Position numbers and translations under genes: made by a program
From: Methanobacteriota archaeon
GTDB lineage: Archaea > Methanobacteriota > Methanobacteria > Methanobacteriales > Methanobacteriaceae
Direction: 5' to 3'
NCBI GenBank assembly: GCA_963787255.1
Contig: CAWBCJ010000025.1
Span: 1 to 64,000 of the forward strand
DNA: 64,000 nucleotides
Shown: positions 42,574-50,265 of the stretch, piece by piece
How positions within the stretch are numbered: the stretch's first letter is position 1
Layout of the letters: the number at the start of each line of letters is the position of its first letter
Notes under the pieces: model-generated
The model's input: the letters and a program-made list of their open reading frames with translations, nothing else
The model's database searches: none
What the model was told of the DNA's origin: nothing

Positions 42574-43600
42574 TTAATATCTTACTTTTCCTATGTGCCT
42601 TGTAGCGCCTGGATCTTCACCATTGAAGTGTGCAAGATAATAAATAAACCATTCAAGTGGAACTACCAGTGCAAATGGTGACATTAAATTATTCATATTC
42701 GAATAATCTTTTAAGTTGTAAATAATTGGTTTAACACCAATTTTTTCTCCAAATTCAATGGATTTATGAGTCATTTCATCTCCAGGATAATCGGCATTTA
42801 AAAACACTATAGGAACACCCTCTTCGGCTCTTTCAATTAAACCATGCCTGAACTCACCCAGAATACAAAGGACAGGCGTGTTTTAAGGCACCTTCCATGA
42901 ACATAGTCATAGCCAATTTGTAGGCAAGTCCATAGTTGGGCCCGCTGCCCATACAATAAAATATGTCATCATCCCGGCATTTTTCAGCTATTTCCCTGCC
43001 TTCATCTTCAGTTTTTTTAATTAAATCCTCAGTAATTGCCGGAAGTCTTTCAATATCACTTAGAACATCCATTTTAATTTTCCCAGCTTCGTTTTCATCT
43101 TCTAATCCTTGCATGCTGAATAAGATATTGTAAAGGCTCATTAGCTGGGTCATGTAGGTTTTGGTTCCGAGTATGGCGCTTTCAGTCCCGCCTCTTGTAA
43201 TTACGGTGTCATCAGCTTCTTGAATCATTGTGCATTGCCCTTCATTGGTTATTGCAACAGTATAAACGTCTTTTTCCTGGGCACGATTTAATGCAGCAAC
43301 AGTATCTGCTGTTTCACCGGATTGCGAAGTTAAAATGGCTCCGGCATTTTCATATCCCGTTTTTTTGTTGTAAAAAAACTCATAACCAGTATAAACTTCT
43401 ATATTTCTATCTGAAATAAAATCAAGGGCACTTTTAGCAGAGTAACATGTTGAAAGTGAACTGCCGCAGCCTAGAAGATAAATCTTATCAAATTCTTCAA
43501 ACTTCGCTGCAATTTCTTTCATATGCGACTTTTCTTCCTTTAAAGTATCTTTTAAAGCTTTCGGTTGCTGTAAGATTTCTTCATACATCTTATATTTCAT
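42574..43600 (-). CDS. Double SIS-domain sugar-phosphate isomerase/aminotransferase-like protein (frameshift ~42855)
   Basis: [32 protein letters not shown] across the shift. Confidence 0.85.
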
Positions 43601-43652: not shown

Positions 43653-44687
43653 TTATTTTAGGATTTCAATTTTATCCATATAATCAGCTTTAGTTTGGTC
43701 TAAACTTCCTTTAATAACTCGTGTATTCGCTGTTGTTCCCATAAAGCCGGATTCAAACTTAAATCTAGGCACTAGATGCACATGCACATGTGATATACGC
43801 TGTCCAGCTACTTCACCTAGATTAATTCCAATATTTATACCATCAGGTTTTATAACTTCTTTTATAAGTTTAGTAGCACGTTGTACGGTGTTAAATAAAT
43901 TAGTAAGAGTTTCTGGATCTATATCTTCAAAAAGGGTGTAATGTTTCACTGGAACGACTAAAAGATGTCCCCGGGTAAAAGGATAAGCGTTTAGTATTAC
44001 CATGGTATCCCCATCATTGTATAAAACATTCTTTGAGATGTTTTCTTTGCCTTTTGCCATTTGGCAGAATATACATGGCATTTCAGGATTAATATAATCT
44101 TCTTTAAGAGATGGTGGAGTAAATATTACGTTATAACCGGGGATGTTGTTGTAAAGTTTTGAGATGCAAACTGCCATTTTTGCAACTTCAACTGCATTTG
44201 TACCAATTAAAGAAATTGAAGGCTCTTTTCCCCACGCTCCCATGTGGTATATAACATCTGGAACACCGTTAATCTTTTTAATTGCTGTTTCAACTCCCCA
44301 AGGTATAGTACCGCCTTCAACTTTTTGGATTAATTCTGGTTCGTCTTTTCGGTCATAAAAAGAGATTTTAAGGCCTAGTTTTTTGCAAATTTCTATTATT
44401 TGGTTGTTGTAAATGATATTCATGGCGCTTCTTTTGGTAGGGTCGTGTTTCATTATGCTTAGCACTAGACGGGCCATGTGTGATGATACGCCGTATTCAG
44501 GTTTCATAAAAGCTCGGGGTTTGCCGTGTATAGTTGTGATTCTTCCGGGAATCCCTGCTACATCTTTTACATCCCTGGCGTTTTCTTTTGCCATTACAAT
44601 GTTACTTCTTACTTCGGGAATAAATTCAGTAAATTCATCGCAGTTTTGTAGAATTTCAACGGCTTTTTCTAGATTCTCTATTTCCAT
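43653..44687 (-). CDS. thiN: ThiN thiamine-phosphate synthase fused to a C-terminal HIT hydrolase
   Basis: [29 protein letters not shown] (ThiN); [27 protein letters not shown] (HIT). Confidence 0.85.
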
Positions 44688-44755
44688 GACTATAATATGT
44701 ATTTAACTAGATATAAAGGGTTAGGATTAAAAGGAGAACATGTACTATCCTTTAA

Positions 44756-46043: not shown

Positions 46044-49000
46044 GTGAATAAAATCAGAAAACGATTAATAATGCTAATTTCTTTCATATTTCTTTTAATT
46101 ATTTTCACTAATACTGTTTCTGCTGATCAATCAATTATCTATGTAAATGATTCAGGGGGAAACGATAGCTGGACTGGTGAAACAGCAATATGGGATGGAT
46201 CAACCCTACTTGGACCTAAAAAGTCTATTAAAAATGCCACAGGAACTGTAACTGATGGTGGGACAGTAAACATTGCAAACGGCCAATATACAGGAACAGA
46301 CAACACTAACATCACCATAGATAAAAATATGGCTATTATTGGGCAAAGCAGGGAAAATACCATAATAAATGGAACTAATAATACTGGAATATTCCTGATT
46401 CAAAATGGTGTAAATGTTTTAATCCAGAATTTAACACTTGCAAATGGAAATGCGGATTCCGGCGGTGCAATCCTAAATTCTGGAAATCTAACTGTTTTTG
46501 ACAGTAATTTCATAAATAACACTGCAACTGCTGGTGGTGCTATCCGAAGTATTGGGGGTACTTTGAATGTTAGTCAGTTGTAATTTAACAGATAACGTGG
46601 CATCAGATGGTGGTGCTATCAGTAGTTTAGGAAATTTAAACATTATTAATAGTATTTTCACCAAGAATGGTGCTAGTGAAATATTATATTACAATGATGC
46701 ATTAGGTGGTGCTATTTATTGTGCAGGAATCTAACCGTTCTTAACAGTACTTTCATAAATAACCGTGTTACCAATTGTGGTGGTGCAATTGTAAATGGTG
46801 GAAATTCCATCATTCTTAATAGTACTTTTATAAATACTTCAACTTTTAATAGTGGTGCTATTTGCAATTATGGTAGATTTAACTGTTGGAAATAGCACTT
46901 TCATTAATAACACTGCAGACAGTGGTGGTGCGATTTATAATGGGGGTATTTCAACTGATTTGGGCACTTTTAATAATGGGGGTACGTTAATAGTTGAGGC
47001 TTGTGATTTCATAAGTAGTACTTCAGGATTTAAAGGTGGTTATATTACCAATACAGGTACTTGTTTTATAACTAACAGTAATTTTAGTAATAGTACGGCA
47101 ACAAATGGTGGGGCTATTTGGAATTCTGGAGGTGATTTAACTATTACTGATGTTACTTTCACAAATAACACTGCTTGGGAGGGAGGAGGTGTTATTTTGA
47201 ATGATGGTATTTTGAGTGTCAATAACGTTATTTTCAATGGTAACACTGCACTTGGTGGTGGAGCAATTAGTAATGCTGGTAGTTGATTATTAGTGATAGT
47301 ATTTTCATTGATAACACTTCAGGAGCGGGTGCAATTTCCAGTAATTGCAGGGTGATTTAACTGTTTTTAACAGTAATTTCACAGGTAACACTGCAACTTC
47401 TGGTGGTGGCGCTATCTGCTAATAATGGAGGTACTTTGAATGTAATAATTGTAATTTCACAGATAACTCTGCAACCAATAAAGGGTGGTGCTATTTATAG
47501 TAGTAGTGATCCTCCAGATGTAGCCGTAAACATTATATTTGGCAGTACTTTCACTGGTAACACTGCAACTATGAATGGTGGTGCTATTTACAATGAGTGG
47601 TGAATATTGGGTATGGTACTGGTCAACTTGTCAGTGGAGATAGCTTATTAATTATGAATTTCTGTCAGATTGTAGGATAACAGTCCTGAAGATATATACA
47701 ATCACTAATAGAATTTCAGCAGATCTTAAATATAATTGGTGGGGTTCAAATAATGGTCCAGCATCTGGAAGAGTTACAGGTAGTGCAATTGTCACTCCTT
47801 GGCTTGTTTTAACTGTAACTGCAAATCCTAGCAGTATTGGTGTTAATGGGACATCAACTATAACAGCAGACTTAACACATGACCAGAATGGTGTTTATTA
47901 TGATCCTGCAGATGGTTATGTTCCCGATGGAATTCCAGTGAATTTTACCACAACTTTAGGAAATATAACTAATCCAGTATCTACAGTTAATGGGACCGCA
48001 CAATCAACTTTAAATGGCGGATCAGTGGATGGTGTTGCTAATGTTTCAGTTAAAGTTGACAGTCAAACTGTACAAAAATCAATTCCCGTACAAATAACTT
48101 TCACTATAACTCAAATAAAACAAGCAGCATCAACAGTAAGAAATCACATTGAAACTTATCACCAACTACCTAGTACCGTGGATATCAATGGAACTAATGT
48201 TACTATGTCCCAGTTCTTGGAATTGTTAACCAGTGCTTTACTGCAAATTAACAGTGGAAAAAATAATCCTATACTTTAAGAAATTTCACTGCCCCTACAA
48301 ATCCAAAGGACAATATTCGTGCAGGAAATATTCCTAAAGCAGAATACATGAAACTAGCAGGAGATATTAAAAACTACATGGACAGTAGCGGTAAAACACC
48401 AGACTACGCGTACGGAACAAGTCTGGGAACATGTCTAGGATTTGAAAACCTGGTTTACATGTACACTATGATCCTGGATTACTACAACACCAGCGGTAGG
48501 GTGGCTGATTGGGCAGGGATGGAGCCTTGGAGTGTTATAGTTTCTAAACCTTTTGTGGATCCCAATGCACCAAAATTTAGTGTGGAGCAGATTGAAGATG
48601 CAGCATCTACACTGAGGGCTTATGTTGAGTCTAGTCATAAGTTAATGAGTAAAGTCACAATTAATGGAACAGATGTAACAATGTCACAGTTCCTTGAATT
48701 ACTAACTACAGCATTACTTCAAATAAACAAGGGAAACAGTAATTTAATACCATTAAGAAACATTACAGCACCTACCAAACCATTAGAAAACATACATGCC
48801 GGCAATATTCCCCGAGCAGAATACATGAAACTAGCAAGTGAAATCAAAAACTACATGGACAGTAGCGGTAAAGCACCTGACTACGCTTACGGAACATGTC
48901 TGGGAAATTATATGTGTTTCCAAAACCTGGTTTACATGTACACTATGATCCTAGATTACCATAATTCAAGCGGGAAAATGGCTGACTGGGCAGGGATGGA

Positions 49001-50265
49001 ACCGTGGAGCGTTATAGTATCTAGACCTGTTTTGGATCCAAATGCACCTAAATTCAGTATAGATCAGATTAAAGCTGCTGCATCAATTGTAAGATTATCT
49101 ATAGAAACAAATGGTAAACTGCCGGATTATGTGGAAATAGGATCCAGTCAAGTTACAATGCCCCAATTCCTGGAATTATTAACCAGTGCTTTACTACAAA
49201 TTAACAGTGGAAAAGATAGTCCTATACCTTTAATGAATTTCACTGCCCCAACATGCCCAAAGGATAATATTCGTGCAGGAAATATCCTTAAAGCAGAGTA
49301 TTTAAAGATTGCAAGTGAAATCAAAAACTACATGGACAATACAGGTAAAACGCCAGACTACGCTTATGGGACAAGCTTGGGAACATGTCTTGGATTTGAG
49401 AACCTGGTTTATATGTACACTATGATTTTGGATTACTATAATAGTAGTGGTAAGGTGGCTGATTGGGCAGAAATGAAACCGTGGGGAGTGCGTGGTTACT
49501 GGATGTTGGCATCAAGTGCGCATAGCTTCAATCCATGGACTTTAAAAAATTCGGGAATTACAGATATATTCCTTCTAACTAGATCTGTAACTGGAAACGT
49601 ATACCTTAATGAATTACAATACGTAATAGATGTTTGTAAAGATCCAGGAATACGTGTTCACGCGTGGATTGTATGTTTTAAGGATAATAATGCATTTGTT
49701 AACCCTATTACGCCCGGATACAAAGAAAGTTTACTTAATCTAATTAGTAACATTGCAAATAATTATGCTGTAAATGGAATTCACTTAGATTATGTAAGAT
49801 ACTCTGGTGTTGGGAATAATGCGGCTTCAGCACAGCTGGGAGGTACTTCTGCAGCAGTTGCTACCATAACTGGTTTTGTACACAGTGTTTATGATTTAGT
49901 GAAGGGAATCAATACAAAAAATAGCAGTTTCAGCAGCAGTGATGCCTGAAGGAGCAAACAATCCAGGTCTTTATGGGCAGGATTACAGTCAACTTGCAGA
50001 CTATGTTGACTTCTTTTTACCTATGACCTATGAAGGAAACTACAATGCAAATAATGCATGGATAACAAGCGCTACACAGTATATAGTTGATCATGCCAAA
50101 GGTAAACCGGTATATGCTGGTTTAACAACCTATTGGTCTGACAGTAACACAAGAGCATTAACTCAATCTGAATTAAATGAAGATGCAAACTCAGCTAGAC
50201 TTGGTGGTGCATCAGGTTATGTATTATTCAGATTTGGCTATGGAAGTTCCGCAATACCATGTTAA
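46044..50265 (+). CDS. Adhesin-like surface protein: beta-helix repeats, Ig-like domain, pseudomurein-binding repeats, C-terminal putative glycoside hydrolase (many frameshifts)
   Basis: Signal peptide; FxNNTA..GGAI repeats; NWWGSN; VPDGIPV; repeated QFLELL/GKTPDY/ENLVYMY; GIHLDYVRY, PMTY. Confidence 0.8.

Follow-up and report, generated by a model that had tools for sequence, protein, structure and literature searches.

A conserved ThiN-HIT fusion gene of Methanobacteriaceae and a candidate role of its HIT domain in ADP-thiazole processing

What does a histidine triad (HIT) domain do when it is joined to ThiN, a domain that makes thiamine phosphate (ThMP)? This question is raised by thiN-HIT, a gene within a 64,000-nt stretch of contig CAWBCJ010000025.1 (assembly GCA_963787255.1, Methanobacteriaceae); this entire stretch, here called the window, supplies all coordinates, and residue numbers are those of the 344-aa thiN-HIT protein. 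For organisms that use Thi4/THI1 (archaea, fungi, plants), the available passages of the literature attribute the conversion of ADP-thiazole (ADT) to thiazole phosphate to a NUDIX hydrolase without evidence and assign no enzyme to this step, bearing out the gap from which a preliminary description of this DNA had started, a hydrolase presumed to be of the NUDIX type. We find that thiN-HIT is a conserved gene, and its fusion of the consuming enzyme ThiN to a domain type that cleaves AMP-X bonds offers a “Rosetta stone” lead on the ADT step. That the HIT domain cleaves ADT and thereby feeds ThiN is the most plausible of several readings, and we propose it tentatively. In our view, part of the Methanobacteriaceae carries the domain as an accessory that is confined to this lineage and can be dispensed with, not as a universal missing enzyme.

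The thiN-HIT gene and its thiamine context

Both Pfam matches of the protein are essentially full length and well past chance level. ThiN (E 7.6e-63, 211.5 bits at a cut-off of 25) covers profile positions 1-163 of 165, and HIT (E 4.8e-22, 78.9 bits at a cut-off of 21.5) covers positions 2-97 of 98. Moreover, the N-terminal half matches the C-terminal part of ThiDN (NCBIfam profile PRK08573, positions 273-446 of 450). The preliminary description had read a single 344-aa open reading frame (ORF) in which ThiN precedes a complete HIT domain with the motifs CIFC and HVHVHLV, and the ORF list and Pfam agree with it. It had further suggested looking for the fusion in relatives and in sequencing reads; many genomes indeed carry it, and metagenome contigs bridge the junction.

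A homologue search in a collection of 5.8 billion proteins returned 220 proteins at E <= 1e-5. Both Pfam domains are present in 117 of the best 120 of these 220, and 113 of the 117 comprise at least 330 aa with 48-92% identity to the query. Orthologue lengths range from 340 to 430 aa, with a linker of variable length. The source databases name these proteins “thiamine-phosphate synthase family protein” in Methanobacterium species, and the automatic name at JGI is [quoted passage not shown]. The architecture is hence already in public databases under automatic names, and the functional hypothesis appears undescribed: in the literature searched, we found neither a ThiN-HIT link nor an enzyme for the ADT step, the key ThiN papers lying outside that search, so that an earlier mention is possible.

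In an alignment of the query with the 113 full-length homologues (114 sequences), H300 and H302 are present in all 114 and H304 in 113, with Gln in the remaining one. C205 and C208 are invariant in the 114 fusions as well as in all 15 sequences of an alignment of the stand-alone family. N233, P236, N285, G287, and N289 are each kept in 113 sequences and G291 in all 114, and H241 is invariant in a separate 68-sequence alignment. On average, the commonest residue reaches a frequency of 0.80 in ThiN, against 0.76 in HIT and 0.58 in the linker, HIT being conserved nearly to the degree of ThiN. Within ThiN, the fusions show little or no variation in the motifs [27 protein letters not shown] and GAWGKEP. 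In four soil-metagenome runs of a single study, contigs from related strains span the junction (43938-44296) with zero indels and show no indel anywhere between 43644 and 44693. Because the domains and catalytic residues are kept in the homologues and the junction contigs are free of indels, thiN-HIT is a real, conserved gene with purifying selection on both halves, not an assembly artefact. We are nearly certain of the two-domain architecture and of the predicted active HIT fold. An origin of the fusion by artefact, through a lost stop codon or misassembly, is ruled out by the relatives that share it and by the junction-spanning contigs.

Truncated or split forms recur at the linker (44090-44110), namely in the proteins P0091 and P0119 and in genome G136 (locus L032). 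P0091 (97% identical, 199 aa) and P0119 (79%, 201 aa) stop out of frame a few residues past the Lys codons of the linker; these truncations may be real frameshifts or homopolymer errors, and the recurrent breaks may also mark sites prone to slippage.

The source genome (2.47 Mb in 29 contigs, 95% complete) contains thiN-HIT as its sole PF10120 match, and a profile search of this genome did not find ThiE (PF02581). ThiD is a separate gene, ThiC has two matches, and ThiL has two above the cut-off. Two full-length Thi4 genes pass TIGR00292, the NCBIfam equivalog “sulfide-dependent adenosine diphosphate thiazole synthase” (336.5 and 232 bits, cut-off 148.3). By gene content, a complete de novo thiamine pathway via ADT is thus predicted, in which thiN-HIT is, from its genomic context, the only ThMP synthase candidate. 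Because two Thi4 copies, ThiC, ThiD, ThiL, and a single ThiN occur without ThiE, ADT would be made in this organism, and its thiazole moiety would have to be consumed by thiN-HIT. The genome encodes three further HIT proteins, each less than 25% identical to the fused HIT domain, and three NUDIX genes. The first Thi4 copy (locus L002) is followed by an AAA_18 kinase-like gene. The second (C29:711246-714926, locus L003) is flanked by genes for ThiI and a MOSC-domain protein, and a NifU-like gene adjoins them; the whole resembles a sulfur-relay cluster.

Two other ThiN fusions provide a frame of reference. ThiDN (MJ0236 of M. jannaschii; 2php, 2pb9) contains the same catalytic-type ThiN domain, again fused to an enzyme of the same pathway. 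Its partner is an N-terminal hydroxymethylpyrimidine phosphate (HMP-P) kinase, whereas here ThiD is separate and the partner is a C-terminal HIT domain without an assigned thiamine role. Sequence matches of the ThiN part to these structures are strong (2pb9, E 2e-40; 2php/MJ0236, E 8e-32), with about 45-50% identity and few gaps to the ThiDN-derived 2pb9. ThiR (e.g., HVO_0662) is described as a transcriptional repressor that combines a helix-turn-helix (HTH) with ThiN (PMC4215014). Like ThiR, thiN-HIT joins ThiN to a partner other than ThiD, but Pfam detects no HTH in it. A purely regulatory role of this ThiN is unlikely because it is the sole ThMP synthase candidate of the genome.

The HIT domain and its proposed reaction

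In an AlphaFold2 model computed from 68 sequences (mean predicted local distance difference test score, pLDDT, of 83.6), the ThiN part (residues 1-180) mostly reaches a pLDDT of 86-97. It superposes on 2pb9 and 2php with target-normalised template-modelling (TM) scores of 0.87-0.90 and root-mean-square deviations of 1.4-1.6 Å. Besides the ThiN structures, the best fold matches are the diadenosine tetraphosphate (Ap4A) phosphorylase Rv2613c (3wo5, 3ano) and 6af2 from M. avium, followed by ST2152 and Fhit. The pLDDT falls below 50 in the linker (183-199) and in a loop (313-326), and the predicted TM score is 0.56.

The same phosphorylases are the best solved sequence relatives of the HIT half (6af2 and 3wo5/3ano, E 5e-20 to 1.5e-18). 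Hint-like HIT structures follow at E 5e-18 to 7e-16, a small margin between the two groups, and Fhit at about 1e-11. The best NCBIfam model for the C-terminal half is NF052622 (actinobacterial ATP adenylyltransferase, equivalog), which scores 85.5 bits at a cut-off of 290; because this cut-off is missed, we do not class the fused HIT as an Ap4A phosphorylase. The scores for Hint-type purine nucleoside phosphoramidases likewise stay below their cut-offs (NF007965, 28.6 of 206 bits; NF045834, 57.8 of 130 bits). Judged by these matches, the fused HIT is a diverged member of a branch whose characterised members cleave AMP-O-phosphoryl bonds. It has in common with the mycobacterial Ap4A phosphorylases (Rv2613c 3ano/3wo5; M. 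avium 6af2) an N-terminal stretch ahead of the CxxC motif and a C-terminal extension that follows the triad. It differs from them in that identity is only about 27-30% and Rv2613c is a stand-alone protein. Furthermore, the loop that aligns with G146/S147 of Rv2613c is one residue shorter in thiN-HIT, and position 296 varies (Q in 60, A in 33, and S in 16 of the 114 aligned sequences).

A search with the HIT half in 1.84 billion cluster representatives gave 10,396 matches at E <= 1e-3, of which only 9 reach E <= 1e-30. The nearest relatives that are not fused to ThiN are stand-alone proteins of about 150-195 aa with 34-46% identity, found in a species-genome scan mostly in Asgard archaea, other archaea, Spirochaetota, and Chloroflexota. 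Their few source names read “ATP adenylyltransferase”, “Ap4A HIT family hydrolase”, or “HIT family protein”. The HIT module aligns end to end with 15 sequences of this family, whereby VIFTPPS of the linker aligns with an N-terminal “W-A/S-P-x-R..Y” stretch and the C-terminal [19 protein letters not shown] with the extension that follows the triad. C205 and C208 may form a zinc site, by analogy with other HIT proteins.

In HIT enzymes, the middle histidine attacks the α-phosphate of AMP-X and X leaves; the resulting enzyme-AMP is resolved by water or, in phosphorylases, by phosphate. Ap4A phosphorylases and Fhit cleave AMP-O-phosphoryl bonds, and ADT contains the same bond type. In thiN-HIT, H302 is presumably the nucleophile, after the middle histidine of HIT enzymes (Fhit H96). 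Cleavage of ADT is chemically fitting since the HIT branch cleaves AMP-O-P bonds. Moreover, ADT is the only AMP-X intermediate expected in the thiamine pathway of this organism, with X being thiazole phosphate, the ThiN substrate. We tentatively infer ADT as the HIT substrate.

The proposed reaction would begin with ADT made by the sulfide-dependent Thi4. His302 would attack the ADT α-phosphate with thiazole phosphate as the leaving group, and the AMP-enzyme intermediate would be resolved by water, yielding AMP, or by phosphate, yielding ADP. Thiazole phosphate would thereby be released beside the site of ThiN, which would join it with hydroxymethylpyrimidine diphosphate (HMP-PP). The flexible, poorly conserved linker tethers ThiN to a catalytically intact HIT. 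Relatives without HIT would have to process ADT by another enzyme. A precedent by analogy only is NitFhit of worms and flies (1ems), which is among the fold matches. There, a Fhit-type HIT sits on a metabolic enzyme, a “Rosetta stone” for a shared pathway; it differs from thiN-HIT in partner, domain order, and organisms.

In a more specific version, HIT would be a phosphorolytic or pyrophosphorolytic ADT adenylyltransferase rather than a hydrolase: the AMP on His302 would pass to phosphate or to the diphosphate released by ThiN, regenerating ADP or ATP, and thiazole phosphate would be handed to ThiN. We regard this version as improbable. If true, it would represent the first HIT enzyme in cofactor biosynthesis and assign an enzyme to the step from the Thi4 product to thiazole phosphate.

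Distribution of the HIT domain and its proposed link to ADP-thiazole

The distribution was followed in 151 Methanobacteriales genomes (order sample) and in a wider sample of 301 genomes. In the labels used here, G denotes a sampled genome (G000 being the source genome), g a GTDB genus, L a locus, and P a protein. A ThiN match is present in 78 of the 151 genomes. It forms part of a single full-length match (residues 1-344) in 24 and stands alone in 49; four genomes (G002, G021, G039, G072) have both halves in one longer frame with a longer linker, and in G136, as confirmed by Pfam, ThiN and HIT lie on separate ORFs that overlap in different frames. Thus, 29 of the 151 genomes bear the HIT part. 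In the wider sample, an orthologous HIT occurs in 55 of 301 genomes, all in six GTDB genera of one family: g1 (15 of 20 besides the source genome), g2 (5 of 5), g7 (3 of 3), g9 (8 of 18), g10 (22 of 29), and g21 (1 of 1). The frame is open over at least 343 aa in 49 of the 55, and the remaining six consist of the confirmed split in G136 and five short or fragmentary frames. Three more of the 301 genomes show distant matches only (31-39%). No second copy of this HIT type was found elsewhere in the 55 carrier genomes, and within this sample it occurs essentially only as a ThiN fusion.

Several findings weigh against the proposal that the HIT domain cleaves ADT for ThiN. ThiN lacks this HIT in 49 of the 78 ThiN-bearing genomes, among them G088 and G097 from the same genus as the source genome and all sampled genomes of two other families. 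The preliminary description had called for a profile of HIT against thi4 and regarded the absence of thi4 from the genome as decisive against its idea; beyond the two copies described above, Thi4 (E <= 1e-30) occurs in 29 of 29 HIT-bearing genomes, and also in 48 of the 49 ThiN-only genomes, the exception being G137 (92% complete). In a maximum-likelihood tree of 24 ThiN domains (185 columns, modest resolution), ThiN-only genes branch among fused genes from their own genus, with G103 next to G072 (98/91), G100 next to the split G136 (89/91), and G088 together with G141 and G057 (83/70). Remnants are preserved in two of these. G100 (L033 1983-2712) retains a truncated HIT with similarity to its fused relatives until residue ~232-264, a deletion having taken the rest of HIT together with the adjoining SIS gene, and G103 (L031 2940-3547) retains a linker remnant with similarity to residue 203 of its fused sister. 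The nested ThiN-only genes and these remnants show that HIT disappeared more than once while Thi4 was retained. The pattern is most simply explained by a single fusion in an ancestor of these genera and several later losses of HIT.

The same counts bear on two other substrates, adenylated thiamine derivatives having been named as an alternative in the preliminary description. In a reversed order of steps, ThiN would couple HMP-PP with the adenylated thiazole to adenosine thiamine diphosphate (AThDP), from which HIT would remove AMP to yield ThMP. The fusion and pathway evidence named above applies to this order equally, and HIT chemistry suits either substrate, but in the 48 ThiN-only genomes with Thi4 the adenylated product would then lead nowhere without a further enzyme to process it. 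Stand-alone ThiN domains, moreover, reportedly use thiazole phosphate in vitro in the work of Hayashi et al. 2014, and we judge the reversed order unlikely. Still less probable, indeed very unlikely, is a salvage or proofreading function in which HIT hydrolyses adenylated thiamine derivatives (adenosine thiamine triphosphate, AThTP, or AThDP) or side-products of Thi4: the logic of fusion speaks for it, while nothing specific was found and the domain is dispensable.

Returning to ADT cleavage by HIT, a division of labour with NUDIX enzymes is likewise not apparent. The presumed NUDIX hydrolases would perform the same step, ADT to thiazole phosphate and AMP, with an unrelated fold and mechanism and no covalent His-AMP intermediate, and they coexist with the fusion in every sampled genome. 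NUDIX matches occur in 151 of 151 genomes, and we observed no complementarity between HIT and NUDIX. The fused G000 and the ThiN-only G088 and G097 of the same genus share an identical set of three NUDIX orthogroups (A, B, and C). Orthogroup C, the only one surveyed across the order, occurs in the majority of fused genomes. Per genome, fused members have 1-4 and ThiN-only members 2-4 NUDIX matches, by a hand reading confounded by shared ancestry. Within g9, five genomes with the fusion (G040, G080, G107, the split G136, and G143) have one NUDIX match each and carry only the second type of Thi4 (E ~1e-74), and ThiN-only g9 genomes have 2-3 NUDIX matches and the first type of Thi4. As these five form a single clade, this pattern counts as one evolutionary event. 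The presence of HIT does not correlate with that of a second Thi4 paralogue, since fused and ThiN-only genomes both occur with and without it.

The relatives of the fused HIT point in the same direction. The fusion partners seen in related HIT domains are a second HIT, RNase HII, CYTH, class II aldolase, NUDIX, a ClpX-type zinc finger, and a ligase fragment, and the 29 longer proteins among the 150 best representatives include no other thiamine-enzyme partner. Because these domains join many unrelated partners, the fusion argument weighs less. P0278 alone joins a related HIT to CYTH, a family with thiamine triphosphatases among its members. We also scanned the neighbourhoods, about 10 kb each, of 79 stand-alone HIT loci outside Methanobacterium, located with a 5-sequence alignment. 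The tblastn queries were ThiN, ThiD, ThiC, ThiL, and Thi4 of the source genome and did not include ThiE and ThiM. A thiamine gene lies within 5 kb in three of the 79 loci, none in an operon, compared with a rough chance estimate of about two; these are ThiDN in two related Candidatus Helarchaeota and ThiC in one bacterium. In the two Helarchaeota (L062, L066), 2-3.5 kb and 2-4 genes separate the HIT relative from ThiDN, which is encoded on the other strand; so small a count does not exceed chance. Finally, the AlphaFold2 model renders each of the two domains confidently but predicts no fixed arrangement between them, which is weak evidence. Taken together, comparative genomics gives the role as an ADP-thiazole hydrolase no specific support and argues against an indispensable or general role.

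Much of this evidence would also fit a historical fusion, in which a housekeeping HIT acting on dinucleoside polyphosphates or AMP-X was inserted between thiN and the SIS gene and joined by loss of a stop codon, independently of thiamine. The nearest characterised relatives are Ap4A phosphorylases, stand-alone relatives bear the names “ATP adenylyltransferase” or “Ap4A HIT family hydrolase”, and the repeated loss of HIT with retention of Thi4 and ThiN, the split or frameshifted forms at the linker (G136, P0091, P0119), the many unrelated partners of this group, and the lack of a confident inter-domain geometry are all in line with it. However, this HIT type is never a separate gene in genomes that carry the fusion, and the fusion persists in six GTDB genera, its catalytic residues intact. 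In addition, a housekeeping function that was lost should be replaced, and no replacement was seen. On balance, we consider the historical fusion somewhat unlikely.

As for the ADT hydrolase of the preliminary description, the word candidate is fair, for HIT chemistry fits, thi4 is present, and many relatives carry the fusion. To call it the missing hydrolase of archaeal thiamine synthesis goes too far, given the 48 of 49 ThiN-only genomes that keep Thi4 and the repeated loss of HIT. If the ADT role is true, at least one lineage uses a HIT enzyme for this step, possibly conserving the phosphoanhydride bond, which would prompt a look at stand-alone HIT proteins elsewhere. Even then, it would be a local accessory solution that leaves many Thi4 organisms without HIT unexplained. 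The value of the lead is limited by its narrow distribution, in part of one methanogen family, and by the relatives that manage without HIT; should the ADT role be false, thiN-HIT stands as a well-documented domain fusion that is dispensable and repeatedly lost.

Neighbouring genes and coordinates

Directly 3′ of thiN or thiN-HIT, an intact SIS gene of 334-357 aa is found by Pfam in 18 of 23 related loci; one of the remaining loci was judged SIS by size only, and four are without SIS. The product of the SIS gene is similar to FrlB or to the isomerase half of GlmS, although its scores stay below the family cut-offs. thiN and the SIS gene often overlap by 4-17 bp, which suggests translational coupling. 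The order NOG1-type GTPase, HSP20, SIS gene, thiN[-HIT] is kept in three families of the order (loci L018-L040; 40862-45743 in the window), followed in some loci by DUF2124 and DUF447. The HIT coding sequence sits between two genes that overlap or abut in ThiN-only genomes, a position compatible with functional recruitment as well as with accidental fusion of an inserted gene.

This arrangement bears on a further explanation, namely that HIT is a nucleotide-sensing or regulatory module for ThiN, or that it serves the co-transcribed SIS enzyme. The conserved thiN[-HIT]-SIS operon, with SIS directly 3′ in the 18 loci, and the placement of HIT exactly between the two genes are in its favour. The invariant full triad, though, points to catalysis over mere binding, and g7 contains fusions without a SIS neighbour (L026, L028), so that we hold such a role to be rather improbable. 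Conservation of the triad is also among the points in favour of ADT cleavage by HIT.

The coordinates of the locus are collected in Table 1. In the window, the SIS gene is split by an extra G in the GGG run at about 42855-42857, a base absent from the contigs in all four metagenome runs; the split reflects either a genuine frameshift or a mistake in assembling the homopolymer.

Table 1. Features of the thiN-HIT locus in the window
Feature	Coordinates	Strand	Remarks
thiN-HIT gene	43653..44687	(-)	single uninterrupted 344-aa ORF, ATG start; Pfam ThiN and HIT
ThiN domain, residues 5-172	44172..44675	(-)	PF10120
Linker, residues 173-204	44076..44171	(-)	end of the last ThiN helix, then poorly conserved tether
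HIT core, residues 215-310	43758..44045	(-)	PF01230
Entire HIT module including N- and C-terminal extensions, residues ~186-344	43656-44132	(-)	
CIFC, C205-x-x-C208 (residues 205-208)	44064..44075	(-)	from translation
Histidine triad HVHVHLV, residues 300-306 (H300, H302, H304)	43770..43790	(-)	from translation
TATA-like TTTATAT, 24-30 nt 5′ of the ATG	44711..44717	(-)	sequence reading
SIS-domain gene (like the GlmS isomerase half), 3′ of thiN-HIT	42574..43600	(-)	split into ORFs of 248 and 77 aa

The TATA-like element may be an archaeal promoter that gives a leaderless or short-leader mRNA. An Rfam scan of the entire window gave zero matches and hence no thiamine pyrophosphate (TPP) riboswitch. 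On the forward strand, positions 46044-49949 hold adjacent ORFs in different frames with Asn/Gly/Thr-rich repeats and repeated “QFLELLT..LLQIN” modules, which may encode a large surface protein or several, with frameshifts perhaps interrupting the reading frame.

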